Below, one piece after another: positions 25,382 to 64,000 of a stretch of 64,000 bases of DNA. Below the pieces are notes generated by a model. That model made no database searches. It was given only the letters and a program-made list of their open reading frames with translations, and had not been told where the DNA came from. Location of the stretch: positions 60,067 to 124,066 of the IMG/VR virus record IMGVR_UViG_3300037851_000345; one strand, given 5' to 3'. The position numbers were made by a program, and so were the translations under genes. The stretch is from a virus. Lineage: Duplodnaviria > Heunggongvirae > Uroviricota > Caudoviricetes. Every line of letters begins with the position of its first letter. The first letter of the stretch is position 1.

Positions 25382-25697
25382 GACGAGTTTTGATTTTTAC
25401 AAATTGAGGGCGAATTCCAAACCCGCCTGCCCGAAGTGTGGAAGCACGGAAGGGTTCGAGAAACAACCGACTGCCCCTGCAATTGCCTTCAAGGGAGAGG
25501 GCTGGCAGACAACGAACTTCAATGCCTCAGTTGACCCTACGAGTGTACCTGGGGTCAAAAAGATTGAACTTCAAGACCAACGACCTGACCAAAAAATACT
25601 CTATAAGAGAAAAAAAGAGGCCACAGGTAGACGAAGAAAAATTAAGGTTCAGGGGCTTCAGGAAAGGAAGAGGTTGTTCCCTGTCGGGAAAGAGTAA
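25347..25697 (+). CDS. FmdB-family zinc-ribbon protein
   Basis: MPVYILKCQKC...CPKCGS...APAIAFKGEGW. Confidence 0.8.
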   Translation: MPVYILKCQKCKTSFDFYKLRANSKPACPKCGSTEGFEKQPTAPAIAFKGEGWQTTNFNASVDPTSVPGVKKIELQDQRPDQKILYKRKKEATGRRRKIKVQGLQERKRLFPVGKE

Positions 25698-26269
25698 TGC
25701 GACTGCAAGAAATCTACACGGATATCATCCTTCACCATTCGAACCGCTATACGGACAAGGGAATCGGAACGTTGCGGCCAGGGACACCTCTAGGACACAC
25801 CTTCTGCGAAATCTACGACCTCTTGCTTGACAAGTACGTTGACCAACCGATAAATTTCTTAGAAATCGGAATTAGCAAAGGCGGGAGTCTGTTGATGTGG
25901 AGAAATTACTTTCCCAAGGCCTACATCTACGGGATTGATATTTTCAAACAGTTTGATGATTTCAAACCCAAGGATGATATCAAGACGTTTATTTTAGATG
26001 CGACAAATGAAGCCGCAGTCAATGCTGCCTTGAAGGATTTGCGCTTCGATATCATTTTGGACGATGCGGCACACGACAAGGAATCCCAAATGCGGGTGTT
26101 CAATATTTTCAGCAAACGAGTCGTGGATGGCGGGATGTATCTGATTGAGGACGTGGACGATATTAATAACGACATTCCGTACTTTTCCACGAAAAAAATT
26201 CCTACCGTGATAGACAGAAGGCTGAAAAACAACCTTTGGAACGATGTGATTTTATTGTACCAATTTTAG
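25697..26269 (+). CDS. Class I SAM-dependent methyltransferase (small-molecule/sugar O-MTase type)
   Basis: LEIGISKGGSL, IYGIDI, FDIILDDAAH, GGMYLIED. Confidence 0.8.
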   Translation: MRLQEIYTDIILHHSNRYTDKGIGTLRPGTPLGHTFCEIYDLLLDKYVDQPINFLEIGISKGGSLLMWRNYFPKAYIYGIDIFKQFDDFKPKDDIKTFILDATNEAAVNAALKDLRFDIILDDAAHDKESQMRVFNIFSKRVVDGGMYLIEDVDDINNDIPYFSTKKIPTVIDRRLKNNLWNDVILLYQF

Positions 26270-26273
26270 AAAG

Positions 26274-26564
26274 ATGAAAATAGAATTAGATGGTAATAAC
26301 AGGGATTATTTGGCCCACGGTAACAAAGTAAGAACAGGCCATTGTCTTAGATGCGGGGAATGTTGCAAGCATATAGGTTGCAAACATCTTATCTTGGAAT
26401 CCGATAACGGTCAAGCAGTCTATGCTTGCGAGTTCGAAAAAGGACTAGTAAAGTACAGGAACCACAACATTCCTTGGCTCAACAAACCATTTCGGTGTAT
26501 TTTATATCCCTTTGGGGATGAACTTTTAGAAACTTGTGGATACTCTTGGAAGGAAAAACAATAA
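26274..26564 (+). CDS. YkgJ-like CxxCxxCC cysteine-cluster protein
   Basis: CLRCGECC...C...C...CILYP. Confidence 0.7.
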   Translation: MKIELDGNNRDYLAHGNKVRTGHCLRCGECCKHIGCKHLILESDNGQAVYACEFEKGLVKYRNHNIPWLNKPFRCILYPFGDELLETCGYSWKEKQ

Positions 26565-26567
26565 ATA
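26561..26567 (+). promoter_or_regulatory. Late promoter for hsp20
   Basis: ATAAATA overlapping the upstream stop codon. Confidence 0.55.
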
Positions 26568-26572
26568 ATGAT

Positions 26573-27103
26573 GGGTTGGGGAACAACCCGTGGCGGGATA
26601 AGCCACAGCAGTCAGAAATAGGAGGAAAAACTATGACAATGCTACCAACAAAAAAATTCAGTCCAATGCTACACCCACGTTCAATTTTTGAGCCGTGGTT
26701 TCAACAATTTTTTGATGACAATGAAGATTCATTCTTCAGCAAACTGATACCGTGGGATGAAAGAATGGGTTCAATGGATTTCGAAAAGACCGAAAAGGAC
26801 TACATCATTTCGGTAGATGTCCCAGGTCTGACGAAAGAGGATGTTCATGTTGATGTTGAGGAAGGAGTAATGACGATATCAGCAGAGAGAAAACCGAAAG
26901 AAAAGAAAGATGGTATCGAATACATCGTCTCCGAGAGAAGTTATCGTAGGTTCAGCAGAACCTTCAGGCTTCCCGAAGATGTGGACTTGGAAAAAGTCGA
27001 TACCAAGATGGAGAACGGAGTGCTGACCCTGACCATCGGTAGAAAAATCAACAAGAAGTCAGCCAAGAAAATCGAAATTAAGTAAGGGTCTGTTCCCCAA
27101 CCC
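26573..27103. repeat. 13-bp perfect inverted repeat flanking hsp20
   Basis: GGGTTGGGGAACA (26573-26585) and TGTTCCCCAACCC (27091-27103). Confidence 0.9.
26633..27085 (+). CDS. hsp20: Small heat-shock protein (Hsp20/alpha-crystallin)
   Basis: DVPGLTKEDVHV, ERSYRRFSRTFRLP, ENGVLTLTI; ATG after AGGAGG. Confidence 0.93.
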   Translation: MTMLPTKKFSPMLHPRSIFEPWFQQFFDDNEDSFFSKLIPWDERMGSMDFEKTEKDYIISVDVPGLTKEDVHVDVEEGVMTISAERKPKEKKDGIEYIVSERSYRRFSRTFRLPEDVDLEKVDTKMENGVLTLTIGRKINKKSAKKIEIK

Positions 27104-27113
27104 TATTACAAAC

Positions 27114-27124
27114 TGTGGTATAAT
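27114..27124 (+). promoter_or_regulatory. Extended -10 promoter with adjacent RBS
   Basis: TTACAAACTGTGGTATAATTAAAGTAGGAG. Confidence 0.7.
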
Positions 27125-27141
27125 TAAAGTAGGAGTGAAGA

Positions 27142-27558
27142 ATGAAAAAGGATAAACCCAAAGACTATATCGCTGAAGTCGTAAAGATTCAGAAGAGAAA
27201 ATTGTCCCACATCAAATTGATGAACGAACTGTTCTTCTTTATCAGCAGGGTCGCTACAACCGAACTACGACAAGAGATGGGGATGCACGGTCAGAATCAG
27301 GAAGAGTTCAGCCGATGCATGAATAACCTTCACAACATTCTCAGCGCAGGGGAGAACGAAGTCCATCGGAAACTTGCGGCCTTTGTCGATATCGACCCCA
27401 AGGTGAATGAAATGCTCAGGAACGAAACGCTGAGATGGTTCGAAAAGGAAGACCACGCAATCATGTCTACGTACTTGGATATGAACTCTTACTACGACAA
27501 GGACGAGAAGGAGTTCAGGAAACAGGTACTAGCCGCCTTGAAGAAAGAGTTTCGGTAA
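27142..27558 (+). CDS. Hypothetical helical protein
   Basis: Promoter plus RBS; core-like codon usage. Confidence 0.65.
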   Translation: MKKDKPKDYIAEVVKIQKRKLSHIKLMNELFFFISRVATTELRQEMGMHGQNQEEFSRCMNNLHNILSAGENEVHRKLAAFVDIDPKVNEMLRNETLRWFEKEDHAIMSTYLDMNSYYDKDEKEFRKQVLAALKKEFR

Positions 27559-27725
27559 GAATGAACTGTAAAAAGTGCGAAGACTTTGAATGGTACGACC
27601 TAGCAAACTCTTCGGGAGATTTGCTCCCGTTCGACCCCACGAAAGTTGACCGAGACCATTGTGTTTGGTTCTTGGCGGGTGGTGGTCAGGATATTATCCC
27701 CGTAGAATAAAAGAGGTAAAAATAT

Positions 27726-28352
27726 ATGAAAATAATTCACCAAACAGCAGAATTACTAACAGACGTTAATCAAACAGAGATTCTACAGCGGCTAGAACTC
27801 TACGGAAGGAACTGCTACAAGTCTGAACACAAGATTTCAGCACACTCCTATCTTGCCTTTATTAAGATGCTCCTACAGCGGAAGCATATGTCCGTCTTGG
27901 AACACGTCAACCTGACCGTAAGATTGATTACCGACAGGGGAATGTTGGCTGAAATCACACGCCATCGACTTGCGAGTTACTCCGTGGAATCAACACGGTA
28001 CATCAAGTATGGGGATAGTGTAAATTTTATTTGGCCTTTCTACGATGAAGATGGCAGAGTAAAGGAAAATAACTTCGAAATGTCCCCGTGGCAGAAAGCG
28101 ATGCTCAATGCCGAAGAATCCTACCACGAACTGCTTCAAACGCTGAAGCCCCAAATCGCTAGAAGCGTTTTGCCGATGTCATTGGCTACGGATATCGTAA
28201 TGACGTGCAACCTAAGAGAATGGCTCTACATCCTGAACCTGAGACAAGCAAAGGGAGTCCACCCGCAGATGAAGGAATTGATGGGTCAGGTGTATAAAAT
28301 ATTTAACAAACGTTTGCCTGCTATTTTTAACGAGGAAACGGTTTGTTGCTAA
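27726..28352 (+). CDS. thyX: Flavin-dependent thymidylate synthase
   Basis: HMSVLEH; RHRLASYSVESTRY signature; NLREW...LR...HPQM. Confidence 0.93.
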   Translation: MKIIHQTAELLTDVNQTEILQRLELYGRNCYKSEHKISAHSYLAFIKMLLQRKHMSVLEHVNLTVRLITDRGMLAEITRHRLASYSVESTRYIKYGDSVNFIWPFYDEDGRVKENNFEMSPWQKAMLNAEESYHELLQTLKPQIARSVLPMSLATDIVMTCNLREWLYILNLRQAKGVHPQMKELMGQVYKIFNKRLPAIFNEETVCC

Positions 28353-28353
28353 T

Positions 28354-28385
28354 TGTGGTATAATGACTACTAATTGTGGTATAAT
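28354..28385 (+). promoter_or_regulatory. Tandem-duplicated extended -10 promoter (21-bp period)
   Basis: CTAATTGTGGTATAAT occurs twice (TGTGGTATAAT at 28354 and 28375). Confidence 0.75.
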
Positions 28386-28405
28386 TTAAGTAAGGAGTGA
28401 ATAAA

Positions 28406-28645
28406 ATGTCAACAAATAACAATTCAGGTAGTTCGGGCAGGGTGGGTCTTTCTGCCGTCCTATTCATCTTGTTTCTTGTACTGAAACTGACAGGGAACAT
28501 CAATTGGTCGTGGTGGTGGGTAACATCCCCCCTTTGGATTCCGTTGGGTCTAGTGGTGGGACTTGGAGTAATCGGTTTCGGAATTTACGGACTGCTAAAA
28601 CTGCTGACTGTAAAAAGGAGAATAAAAAGGAGAATAAAAAGATGA
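28406..28645 (+). CDS. Small two-TM membrane protein
   Basis: LFILFLVLKLTG.INWSWWWVTSPLWIP pattern. Confidence 0.7.
   Translation: MSTNNNSGSSGRVGLSAVLFILFLVLKLTGNINWSWWWVTSPLWIPLGLVVGLGVIGFGIYGLLKLLTVKRRIKRRIKR
28611..28641 (+). repeat. Tandem 12-bp repeat containing an RBS
   Basis: TAAAAAGGAGAA x2 plus partial TAAAAAG before ATG 28642. Confidence 0.8.
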
Positions 28646-28950
28646 ACTACAAATTTAGAAAGAAACCCATTATAATCGAAGCCTTCCAAATGACGAGGGA
28701 AAGAAGGAATGATAATTCAGATTGGCCTTTTTGGTTAAAACTTGCGTGGACTAAGCCGTGGCACGAAGTTGGCTCGGTAAATTCAGAAAATTGGCCTCAC
28801 GGCACAGGTGAGGATAGGTTGATGATCCACACGCTTGAAGGTAAAATGACCGTGGGGTGGAATGACTTCATTATCCAAGGTGTGAATGGCGAACTGTATT
28901 TATGCAAGCATGACATCTTTGAAAAGACCTACGAGGAAGTAAAGGAATAA
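28642..28950 (+). CDS. Conserved phage protein (RKKP...D(Y/F)II.G..GE.Y.CK.DIFEKTY family)
   Basis: KFRKKPIIIEAFQ...NDFIIQGVNGELYLCKHDIFEKTYE. Confidence 0.75.
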   Translation: MNYKFRKKPIIIEAFQMTRERRNDNSDWPFWLKLAWTKPWHEVGSVNSENWPHGTGEDRLMIHTLEGKMTVGWNDFIIQGVNGELYLCKHDIFEKTYEEVKE

Positions 28951-29183
28951 TGATGGAAGAGTTGCAAAAGTGGATAGAAATAATTGATTCCACTTTAAAA
29001 AACCAACAAGGGTAAATTGATGGGTTAATAAAATTGAACCAAGAATACGTTGAGATTTTTAAACAAATCTGTAACGATATTCAAGAGTTGAAGAAGAACA
29101 AAACAGAATTGGATATATCCCAAAAAGGAGTAAGAAATGAAGGAAAAGAAAGAAGAGACACCTACGAAGGTAAAGGTTACTGA
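28950..29183 (+). pseudogene. Coiled-coil ORF interrupted by in-frame TAA (29013-29015)
   Basis: MMEELQKW...NQQG*IDGLIKLNQEY continues in frame for 55 more codons. Confidence 0.45.
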
Positions 29184-33191: not shown

Positions 33192-33590
33192 ATGATTCCA
33201 AAAGGATGTCCCTTTTCTGACAAGCAAAAACTGAAACTCATTCTACATGGTCGCAATGGCATTTGTCGAGGCCATCAGGAAAAGAATAATAACGAGGCTT
33301 ATGAGTTGTGTGGGTGTTGTAAGAGTTGCCAATTTTTCGACCAATCCGTGCTTACGTCGTGGACGTATATTCCGTACATACAGCCGTATCTGCAACCCCA
33401 TCAACCCACACAGCCGCCAAGCATCACCACGACTACCGTACCAAACACAAGCGGCGGGACGTATTGGGGAGACCTTATCACCGATAACTATAACTACACC
33501 GTCTATTACGCCCCAACAAGTTATAAATATTCTACCCTTGTATCGGGAACTTCCCCATCCCGAGCAATTTTACAACCGTCTGTGGTATAA
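33192..33590 (+). CDS. Cys-rich protein, paralog 4, with Pro/Thr/Tyr-rich tail
   Basis: MIPKGCPFSDKQKLKLILH...C...CGCCKSC. Confidence 0.65.
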   Translation: MIPKGCPFSDKQKLKLILHGRNGICRGHQEKNNNEAYELCGCCKSCQFFDQSVLTSWTYIPYIQPYLQPHQPTQPPSITTTTVPNTSGGTYWGDLITDNYNYTVYYAPTSYKYSTLVSGTSPSRAILQPSVV

Positions 33591-33591
33591 T
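33581..33591 (+). promoter_or_regulatory. Extended -10 promoter
   Basis: TGTGGTATAAT then AAGGAGG. Confidence 0.7.
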
Positions 33592-41551: not shown

Positions 41552-41597
41552 ACCCGCCGCGCCTCTCACCGATGCGTAATTCGGCGGGTTTTTCTTT
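41552..41597 (+). terminator. GC-rich stem-loop with T-tract
   Basis: ACCCGCCG...(22 nt)...CGGCGGGT followed by TTTTCTTT. Confidence 0.55.
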
Positions 41598-59643: not shown

Positions 59644-60383
59644 TGGCTATTTCCGAACAAATCAAAACAGTAATAGAGTTCAGAGATTACATCCGCAGAA
59701 AACTAGGTGAACCTAAAGTCAGGGTAGAATTGGCTGATTCCCAAATCGATACGAACCTCTACGATGCTATTCAGTTGTTCAGAGAATACTCAACAGGCAG
59801 AGGCAACACAAGGTCTTTCATGGCCTTGGATTTACAAATAGGGGTTCAAGATTATCAACTTCCCGATTACGTCATGCAGTTGGGATACGATAAAACGAGT
59901 CAATCAGTTTCAGCATGGGTCTTGGCGCAACTGTCAGGCTATGCGGCTAGTGATGTCCTCAGCCTGAAATCATTCGACATGGTTTCATTTTATATGCTCC
60001 AACAATGGATTCACTATTTGAAGTACATCACCATTTCCAAGTTCCGTCTATTTTTCAACACGAATACGAAGATGCTCCACGTTGTGCCAAAGCCTGATGA
60101 TGAATACACCAAACTCTTTATCGAAGTGTTCCACCAAGGGACTACTGACGAATTACTGAACGAACGATTTGTTCGTGAGTACACTCTCGCTCTTTGTAAG
60201 ATTGAACTAGGCGAAATCAGGAGTAAGTTCCAAAGTTTGCCAGGGTTCAACAACTCGGTTTCTCTCAACGGGGAAACATTGAAGACAGAAGGACAAGCGG
60301 AAAAGGAAAAATTGGAGGACGATTTGACCACCCATTTTAAGTGGTCGGCCCCGCCATTTCCCGTTTTTCGTAGCGTAGATTAA
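59643..60383 (+). CDS. gp13: Neck protein (T4 gp13-like)
   Basis: DYIRRKLGEP.VRVEL..SQID...DAIQ.F.EY; VREY.LAL.K..LG....KF...PG...LNG. Confidence 0.85.
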   Translation: MAISEQIKTVIEFRDYIRRKLGEPKVRVELADSQIDTNLYDAIQLFREYSTGRGNTRSFMALDLQIGVQDYQLPDYVMQLGYDKTSQSVSAWVLAQLSGYAASDVLSLKSFDMVSFYMLQQWIHYLKYITISKFRLFFNTNTKMLHVVPKPDDEYTKLFIEVFHQGTTDELLNERFVREYTLALCKIELGEIRSKFQSLPGFNNSVSLNGETLKTEGQAEKEKLEDDLTTHFKWSAPPFPVFRSVD

Positions 60384-60881: not shown

Positions 60882-61350
60882 GCCAATGACTAAGCCGATG
60901 CAACGCCATGCACAAAGGCCAAATCAACCGCAAGTGCCTGCTTGGGTGCTAGAGCAACAGCGAACAAAACGTGAACCAATTAACCCACGGAATTATTTGC
61001 GCCCTGGACCAAAGGCCAAAATCATCGACCTGAACAAAATGATGACCACATGGGGTAAAAATTCAGCAAAGTACAAGGAAGGAGATGTTTTCATTTCCAA
61101 GAAGATTCTTCAGAACCTTGAAAAAGCCGAAGACTTCTCAGGCATTATCTCGCAACCGAAGTTTAAACAAAACCTGAAAACTATCAATGATATCGTTTCA
61201 GGGGGCAAGGGAGAAATCTCTTACAGATTTAAAGGGACTGAGGGATTCTTGGTTGAAGAGGTTATTGGACAGAATTATATTCATCACTATAAGGATAATG
61301 TTTGGGTATATTACAAAGATAAGAACAAAAATGAAGTAGAAAAAGAATAA
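60847..61350 (+). CDS. Hypothetical protein with Pro/Gln/Arg-rich N-terminus
   Basis: RBS AGGAG. Confidence 0.6.
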   Translation: MSDDKLLKSTPRPMTKPMQRHAQRPNQPQVPAWVLEQQRTKREPINPRNYLRPGPKAKIIDLNKMMTTWGKNSAKYKEGDVFISKKILQNLEKAEDFSGIISQPKFKQNLKTINDIVSGGKGEISYRFKGTEGFLVEEVIGQNYIHHYKDNVWVYYKDKNKNEVEKE

Positions 61351-61353
61351 ATA
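61347..61353 (+). promoter_or_regulatory. Late promoter
   Basis: ATAAATA followed by ATAGTGTAGG. Confidence 0.5.
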
Positions 61354-61519
61354 ATAGTGTAGGACTAGGAAGTAATTAACCCTTTTAAAAAACCACCACT
61401 TTTTAGATTATCTACATTAAAATTCAACTTTGGTGGGGTTAAAATGGGAAAGCAAGAATATTTTACAGATTTGAGTAGAAGAAAATTTTAAAAAAAAATA
61501 ATAAAATATTGGGAAAATC

Positions 61520-63880: not shown

Positions 63881-63887
63881 ATAAATA
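63881..63887 (+). promoter_or_regulatory. Late promoter
   Basis: ATAAATA followed by ATAGTGTAGG, as at 61347. Confidence 0.5.
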
Positions 63888-64000
63888 ATAGTGTAGGGAC
63901 AGGGGATGCAACCCTTTCCAAAAAGCCAATTCTTTAAGGAAAGAAGCAATCAAAAAGAGATACATTGATAATAGAGAACAAATTTTAATTCGACAAAAAA

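Follow-up and report, generated by a model that had tools for sequence, protein, structure and literature searches.

Experimentally studied bacterial-type mRNAs whose two ends pair with each other are, to our knowledge, no more than a handful, such as hok, icaR and hbs, and we know of none in a phage. Here we describe a candidate for such an arrangement in a stretch of 64,000 nucleotides (hereafter, the window; positions 60,067 to 124,066 of the IMG/VR virus record IMGVR_UViG_3300037851_000345, which is complete at 222,974 bp). In this stretch, the predicted late mRNA of hsp20, a gene for a small heat-shock protein, starts with a segment that is complementary to the segment following its stop codon. 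In the leader of Escherichia coli ompA, Emory, Bouvet and Belasco are said to have described, in 1992, a 5'-terminal stem-loop that stabilises the message by blocking 5'-end-dependent decay.

The described systems that most resemble the hsp20 locus differ in the consequences of the pairing. In the Bacillus subtilis hbs mRNA, a 14-bp pairing that joins the 5' untranslated region (UTR) to the 3' UTR modulates cleavage by RNase Y (Braun, Durand and Condon 2017, PMC5737220). In the hok mRNA of the hok/sok system of plasmid R1, the closed tac/fbi form indirectly sequesters the Shine-Dalgarno (SD) sequence, and trimming of the 3' end reopens it (PMC9841398). In Staphylococcus aureus icaR, the SD is the partner of a motif in the 3' UTR, and this pairing keeps ribosomes off and generates a site for RNase III (PMC3868564).

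The elements of the window on which the comparison turns are the following.

26561-26567, plus strand: T4-type late-promoter-like motif ATAAATA, followed by 5 nt (ATGAT) and then by the predicted transcription start at 26573.
26573-26589, plus strand: 5' arm, the 5' strand of the closing helix P1; alternatively, the local hairpin GGGTTG-GGGAA-CAACCC.
26633-27085, plus strand: hsp20 coding sequence of 150 aa, with the stop TAA at 27083-27085 and the ATG after a conserved SD (Pfam PF00011 HSP20, E 9.4e-26).
27086-27103, plus strand: 3' arm, the 3' strand of P1, beginning directly after the stop, with C27090 bulged; alternatively, the hairpin GGGT(C)TG-TTCCC-CAACCC.

The core of the 5' arm, GGGTTGGGGAACA (26573-26585), begins 5 nt past ATAAATA, and its exact reverse complement, TGTTCCCCAACCC (27091-27103), lies 5 nt (GGGTC) past the hsp20 stop. 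This arrangement had been pointed out in an earlier reading of the same DNA (hereafter, the original prediction), and all its parts are indeed present, as are the two local folds named there, GGGTTG-GGGAA-CAACCC (26573-26589) and GTGGC-GGGATAA-GCCAC (26590-26606). The proposed extension of the match across a single bulge is borne out as well: with C27090 bulged, ACCC (26586-26589) pairs with GGGT (27086-27089), for a total match of 17 bp. The description of the arms as the extreme ends of the mRNA stands only in part, in that the 5' arm begins at the predicted +1, but this start is itself a prediction, and the putative hsp20 terminator in the window has no U-tract.

The length of the repeat alone is not significant because exact inverted repeats of at least 13 nt, at a spacing of 100-3000 nt, number 24 in the genome vs about 14 in Markov shuffles. 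What distinguishes the hsp20 repeat is its placement and conservation rather than its length. The 13-mer GGGTTGGGGAACA has only two occurrences in the 222,974-bp genome, namely, the two arms, and among the late-promoter-like sites on both strands (n=211), the hsp20 site is the only one with a +1 region that has a downstream complement of 12 nt or longer, at an offset of 0 from the predicted start. A chance origin of the repeat, which would be possible judging by length alone, is excluded by the comparison with relatives.

A protein search yielded a clade of 15 phage hsp20 clusters with 49-98% identity, and DNA was compared for 12 distinct hsp20 lineages, with identity down to 47% (L021). Same-type duplicates (L003/L017, L013, L016 and L031) and incomplete loci (L022 and L027) were left out of this set, and the homologues P0002, P0004, P0007 and P0010, represented by protein only, stand outside the comparison. 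Because a MAFFT alignment of the whole transcripts put the arms of five lineages (L012, L014, L021, L028 and L030) out of register, pairs were counted for each lineage by a script. In all 12 loci (47-98% amino acid identity), the first 8-19 nt that follow ATAAATA and its 5-nt spacer are complementary to a segment located 0-5 nt past the stop, the exception in spacing being L012, where the 3' partner lies 19 nt past the stop. The arms themselves vary in a coordinated manner, as shown by the following variants.

Window: 5' arm GGGTTGGGGAACA, 3' arm TGTTCCCCAACCC.
L004: 5' arm GGGTCGGGGAAC, 3' arm GTTCCCCGACCC; T>C matched by A>G.
L020: 5' arm AGGCTTGGGGAAC, 3' arm GTTCCCCAAGCCT; G>C matched by C>G.
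L014: 5' arm TGGGTTGTTGGGGAAC, 3' arm GTTCCCCAACAACCCA; TTG/CAA insertion in both arms.
L028: 5' arm AGTGGGTTGGGCAAACCC, 3' arm GGGTTTGCCCAACCCACT; exact over 18 nt.
L029: 5' arm GGGGTTGGGAAAC, 3' arm GTTTCCCAACCCC.
L021: 5' arm GACTGGGG, 3' arm CCCCAGTC; new stems in both arms (GACU/AGUC).

In L012, the 3' stem is unrelated (GGGGGA/TCCCCC), yet its 14-nt loop still carries TCCCAACCC(T), which is complementary to (A)GGGTTGGGA at the 5' end. The variants are found on separate branches of the hsp20 tree, and at least seven independent double changes were counted. The covarying positions include the loop nucleotides of the local hairpins (GGGAA/UUCCC, GGGCA/UGCCC and GGAAA/UUUCC), and the loops of the two hairpins are complementary over 4-5 nt in 11 of the 12 lineages. 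Because the loop nucleotides change together, two independent hairpins are inadequate as an explanation. When the longest exact complements between each 5' arm and its own partner are summed, the total is 145, compared to a mean of 100.6 and a maximum of 140 for permuted partners, so that 0 of 100,000 permutations reach the observed value, a figure to be taken as an indication and not as a true probability because the 12 lineages are related. On the sense strand, the pairs of the long-range helix across the 12 lineages comprise 129 G-C, 68 A-U and 7 G-U vs a single C.A mismatch, and this asymmetry between G-U and C.A points to RNA of mRNA sense rather than to DNA.

The compensatory covariation that the original prediction proposed to seek in related phage hsp20 loci is thus found. 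Relatives that keep hsp20 but not the complementary arms, which had been named as the observation that would speak against a transcript closed into a panhandle, were looked for as well; all 12 lineages of the clade retain the arms, and the closing helix appears in every whole-transcript fold. Complementarity of the 5' and 3' segments is very probably a selected feature, and there is a good chance that it acts as intramolecular RNA pairing.

The 12 predicted transcripts, each extending from +1 to just beyond the 3' hairpin, were folded with RNAfold at 37 C. In the minimum free energy (MFE) structures, the first 22 nt pair with the 3' tail by 10-19 bp in every case, and the expected pairs in the ensemble approximately equal the full helix, with a probability near 1. 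RNAduplex puts the first pair of the helix at the predicted +1 in 11 of the 12 lineages, with the 3' strand 0-4 nt past the stop, and the duplex energy is between -21 and -36 kcal/mol vs -11 to -20 kcal/mol for both local hairpins summed. The complementarity of the ends, its conservation and covariation, and the thermodynamic dominance of the closing helix are all established here. Without the 3' arm, the 5' arm forms the local hairpin in every lineage, and therefore the nascent RNA would carry a 5'-terminal hairpin that could be exchanged later for the closing helix. P1 is predicted to be stable from 15 to 55 C, keeping about all of its pairs, and the SD is predicted to be largely unpaired. 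In the 12 loci, removal of the 3' arm makes little difference to the predicted probability that the SD and AUG are unpaired. Given this stability and the unmasked ribosome-binding site, P1 appears to be neither a thermometer nor a translation block of the hok or icaR type.

Two smaller hairpins occupy the remainder of the leader.

26590-26606, plus strand: hairpin P2, GTGGC-GGGATAA-GCCAC, directly abutting P1.
26607-26643, plus strand: weak hairpin P3, with the SD AGGAGG (26620-26625) in the loop and the AUG (26633-26635) in the 3' stem.

RNAalifold analysis of the 12 leaders indicates that four of the five pairs of P2 are kept through two-sided changes, for example, CACGA/TCGTG in L014. P3, with energies of -4.6 to -7.0 kcal/mol, is found in 12 of 12 lineages, and there is covariation in its outer stem that extends to the second codon (GUCA/UGAC, CUCA/UGAG, GCUC/GAGC and UUGCU/AGCAA). 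If any element of the leader senses temperature or a protein, it would be P3, and the predicted effect is small. The hsp20 frame is open upstream through the entire structured leader (window 26534-26632), and the public gene calls of two relatives start within the leader (179 aa for P0001 and 171 aa for P0006). These N-terminal extensions are probably annotation artefacts, with the true start at 26633, because the SD and ATG are conserved and the RNA hairpins covary.

The interpretation that we favour, with a probability of about 60%, is that a conserved helix between the 5' and 3' termini protects or controls the late hsp20 mRNA, in a manner most similar to the pairing in B. subtilis hbs. Under this model, P1 would join the first 8-19 nt of the predicted transcript to the segment after the stop, closing the message of ~530 nt into a panhandle. 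During synthesis, the 5' arm could only fold on itself, into the 5'-terminal hairpin; the 3' arm, once transcribed, may first form a hairpin of its own, which is followed by a U-tract in several lineages, and the complementary loops of the two hairpins would then nucleate the far more stable end-to-end helix. Such a helix would leave no unpaired 5' nucleotide and would bury the 3' region, and for these reasons it would be a likely shield against decay dependent on a free 5' or 3' end or against cleavage by endonucleases. Because the stop codon abuts the helix, protection could be linked to translation. We infer the transcript ends, the pairing in vivo and the stabilising function; among the functions listed in the original prediction, stabilisation fits best, although as the specific role of the helix it comes somewhat short of even odds.

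In addition to the relatedness of the 12 lineages, several considerations weigh against this interpretation. Both the +1 and the 3' end of the hsp20 mRNA are predictions. The 3' hairpin of the window has no U-tract on the plus strand, and neither do those of L023, L028 and L029, so the RNA may read through, and the arm may be internal rather than the physical 3' end; U-rich tails follow the 3' arm in L009, L018, L020 and L014. Folding by MFE ignores co-transcriptional kinetics and ribosomes, and the inner pairs of P1 would be lost whenever a ribosome terminates. Stabilisation alone leaves the match to the 3' arm unexplained because the local 5' hairpin would already provide a protected 5' end. 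Finally, the sole C.A of the long-range helix without a compensating change is that of L018, a lineage in which compensation is seen in the local 5' hairpin, indicating that the local fold is also under selection.

This behaviour of L018 is one of the reasons to consider two local hairpins, a 5' stabiliser and a 3' terminator, each selected separately and in contact at most through 4-5 nt of their loops, with no full panhandle. All lineages can fold both hairpins, compensatory changes are seen within the local 5' stem itself, co-transcriptional folding favours local structures, and a U-tract follows the 3' hairpin in about half of the lineages. Of all the alternatives, this one survives best, but we still regard it as improbable because the stems covary as well (L004 T>C/A>G, L020 G>C/C>G, L014 TTG/CAA and L021 GACU/AGUC), which would be needless if the hairpins were independent. 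Furthermore, the loop of the unrelated 3' stem of L012 pairs with nucleotides of the 5' stem, and the full duplex is 10-20 kcal/mol more stable than both hairpins summed.

Marginally less credible is the possibility that the helix flanks hsp20 within a longer read-through RNA and is a processing stem, such that a host cut of the RNase III type would free a discrete mRNA, as in rRNA precursors. The helix brackets exactly one gene and reaches 15-19 bp in most lineages, and read-through is plausible given the 3' hairpin of the window without a U-tract. In line with this possibility, T4-type phages produce overlapping early and late transcripts (PMC3014915). However, the complementarity starts at the predicted late +1, and not further upstream, in 11 of the 12 loci, whereas a precursor stem would have no reason to stop there. 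The helices of L021 and L012 comprise only 8-10 bp, which we judge to be short for RNase III, and a search of the phage genome found that it encodes no RNase III.

A more elaborate reading, to which we assign a very low probability, holds that the helix is a programmed device and not a passive shield. Either the ends would be juxtaposed for phage RNA ligases, yielding a circular, exonuclease-proof mRNA, or the message would be a hok-like metastable switch that licenses completed transcripts and is reopened by each terminating ribosome. This suggestion is based on the geometry of the ends and the presence of two ligases that are encoded by the phage outside the window, one of the Rnl1 type (PF09511, E 3e-26; G000:C1:135962-136588) and one of the Rnl2 type (PF09414, E 2e-26; 184096-184599).

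Even less should be expected of an origin at the DNA level, with the arms as the inverted-repeat ends of an hsp20 cassette that can move or invert, or as a pair of binding sites for a protein on the DNA. An inserted cassette had been among the options of the original prediction, and it could appeal to the variation of the flanking genes around a constant unit that extends from ATAAATA through the TGnTATAAT promoter downstream of hsp20, and to arms of 13-18 bp, a length that resembles recombinase or transposon ends. The comparison disfavours it: hsp20 occupies the same place and orientation in all loci, in 11 of the 12 the predicted +1 is the first base of the arm, no flanking target duplication is seen at the locus, and there is no further copy of the arm in the 223-kb genome. 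Relatives of the downstream clamp-like gene, sought with a view to an empty site, led to two further contigs, L039 and L042, both of which stop short of the hsp20 position. Moreover, the arms drift in sequence, length and bulges, like base-paired RNA and unlike protein sites, and the sense-strand bias of G.U over C.A is not what DNA sites would show. An IMG/VR scan with the 3'-arm pattern returned, outside hsp20 loci, two chance matches only, both inside GC-rich genes; a scan for the P2 hairpin gave 119 mostly random matches, of which the known hsp20 locus alone remained when a promoter and an SD were required. A repeated genomic element is ruled out by the presence of only two arm copies in the genome and by these scans, which find hsp20 loci plus chance matches. 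T4-type phages reportedly also carry PeSL cassettes, in which, according to what Arbiol and colleagues are said to have described in 2010, the same stem-loop and early promoter recur at many intergenic sites; a mobile cassette of this type was rejected because the arm occurs only twice in the genome and the sequences ahead of the other 39 TGnTATAAT promoters are unrelated to it.

The weakest candidate, together with the DNA-level origin, is an RNA thermometer, that is, opening of the end pairing or of the whole leader with heat that raises hsp20 translation, as the original prediction had also suggested: small heat-shock genes are often under such control, and the weak P3 holds the AUG in its stem, but P1 is not predicted to melt between 15 and 55 C, most of the SD is free of pairing whether the 3' arm is there or not, warming improves the accessibility of the AUG only a little, Rfam gives no match to ROSE, fourU or any other thermometer, and expression from a late promoter is timed by infection and not by heat.

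The promoters on both sides of the gene are part of the conserved unit. The late motif is kept in 12 of 12 hsp20 loci, with the variant CTAAATA in L020. The T4 late promoter is an 8-bp TATA box located about one helical turn upstream of the start (PMC2988020), and the hsp20 locus has a TATAAATA-like box at about this spacing in a genome with a gp55-like late sigma factor; promoter activity is predicted from the motif. The same arrangement, (A/C)ATAAATA followed after ~5 nt by an SD and ATG, is found upstream of many genes in this genome, where the usual leaders are ~20 nt long, so that the structured 60-nt leader of hsp20 is exceptional among the late genes of this phage. The downstream edge of the unit is as follows.

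27116-27124, plus strand: TGGTATAAT, an early-type promoter with an extended -10 that serves the next gene (27142-27558).

With 24 forward occurrences and one reverse in the genome vs 1.8 expected, TGGTATAAT is evidently the early promoter for the host sigma factor. This promoter is kept after the 3' arm in 11 of the 12 loci despite differences in the downstream gene, which, depending on the lineage, is a 138-aa open reading frame (ORF), an IMPDH-like gene or short ORFs. Elsewhere in the window, a tandem duplicate of an early promoter, TTGTGGTATAAT GACTACTAA TTGTGGTATAAT, is located directly after thyX (28356-28385).

The wider neighbourhood and the orientation of hsp20 are constant in all loci: the gene comes after the transglycosylase (SLT) and Zn-ribbon genes, with a clamp-like gene and the clamp loader on its downstream side. 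The directly flanking genes vary, with a methyltransferase and a Cys-rich ORF in the window and ORFs of 59-75 aa in other lineages, and the unit from ATAAATA through the TGnTATAAT promoter is what remains invariant among the relatives. The region around hsp20 is a hot spot of gene content (window 25697-29136 compared to L004, L009, L012 and L014) in which the methyltransferase, the Cys-rich 96-aa ORF, the 138-aa ORF, thyX and other genes are found in some relatives and missing or substituted in others, an IMPDH-like gene being one such substitute; hsp20 with its leader, the 3' arm and the following promoter are fixed within it. Beyond the 15 phage clusters, the next-best matches of the hsp20 protein (window 26633-27082) are plant class I small heat-shock proteins, at ~35-45% identity, and not bacterial ones, a ranking that comes from a word-based protein search and may reflect a bias of the search method.

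The genome encodes a major capsid protein of the T4 type (Gp23; PF07068, E 2e-82), a protein that matches the T4 late sigma factor gp55 weakly but specifically (E 7e-7), and a clamp loader that shares 34% identity with its counterparts in Pelagibacter phage HTVC008M and in marine cyanomyoviruses. On the strength of these three protein similarities, the phage is a distant uncultured member of the T4 superfamily; no nucleotide similarity to cultured phages was found. The paired arms are confined to this hsp20 clade of uncultured T4-like freshwater phages. In the marine cyanophages S-RSM4, S-WAM2 and S-H9-1, whose hsp20 proteins are ~34% identical over part of the protein, hsp20 is followed by ordinary terminators, and no 5'/3' complementarity longer than 6-7 nt was found. 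Among 185,579 prokaryote species genomes, no relatives of this hsp20 clade were detected. Rfam has no match in the hsp20 region; the only match above the gathering score in the window is the abiF RNA motif RF03085 at 41553-41589 (plus strand; 46 bits, E 2.8e-5).

Other structured sites were noticed in the same genome. At four late-promoter-like sites with ATAAATA and ATAGT (window 61347-61420 and 63881-63960; G000:C1 near 56596 and 170994), there is no SD and ATG after the promoter, and structured G-rich segments related to one another come in their place (GTGAGAGACAGGGTTCGCCACC...TCTCAC; GTGTAGGGACAGGGGATGCAACCC). The first bases of these segments pair ~50-60 nt downstream; they could constitute a small late family, of either non-coding RNAs or leaders. 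At window 33537-33591, a hairpin, CGGGA-ACTTCCCCA-TCCCG, has a C-rich UUCCCC loop that resembles the loop of the hsp20 3' hairpin, with ATAAATA at 33523; the early promoter TGTGGTATAAT follows the hairpin.

Taken together, the comparative data alone provide strong covariation support for an end helix in a phage late message that would extend from the first predicted nucleotide to the stop codon. The hsp20 mRNA could serve as a compact natural model, ~530 nt with three small leader hairpins, for the effects of mRNA closure on decay, termination and translation; it is also a candidate RNA family new to Rfam and suggests that auxiliary phage genes can carry elaborate post-transcriptional control of their own.

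How closely the hsp20 message resembles the known systems can be judged from the partners of the pairing and from the state of the ribosome-binding site. From the thermometers of the ROSE, fourU and hsp17 types it is set apart by the predicted open SD, the predicted heat stability of P1 and the lack of an Rfam match; the weak pairing of the AUG in P3 by itself speaks neither way. As reported for ompA, pairing begins at or within 1 nt of the 5' end, but ompA-type stabilisers are purely local hairpins, whereas the selected partner in hsp20 includes the far 3' region. With icaR, the hsp20 mRNA shares a C-rich 3'-UTR motif that pairs with a G-rich leader segment of the same mRNA, but the partner of the 3' arm is +1 to +17 and not the SD, which stays in a loop (26620-26625), so that no anti-SD pairing is predicted. 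The similarity to hok goes further, in that the 3' end of a message ~400-500 nt long is the partner of its extreme 5' end, which can first form a local hairpin during transcription. In silico and with predicted ends, this end-to-end pairing is found in the 12 loci, whereas sequestration of the ribosome-binding site is not: the predicted accessibility of the SD and AUG in hsp20 hardly depends on the 3' arm, and there is no antisense partner or toxin. Compared to hbs, the evidence for hsp20 is covariation only, whereas that for hbs is experimental; the hsp20 helix, moreover, starts at the first predicted nucleotide and directly abuts the stop, and the gene is a phage late gene. Nevertheless, hbs is the closest parallel: in both cases, complementary segments of the leader and the 3'-UTR, kept by selection in hsp20 as the 12 lineages and the permutations indicate, could form a helix of ~14 bp in a short, highly expressed monocistronic mRNA that leaves a strong SD unmasked.

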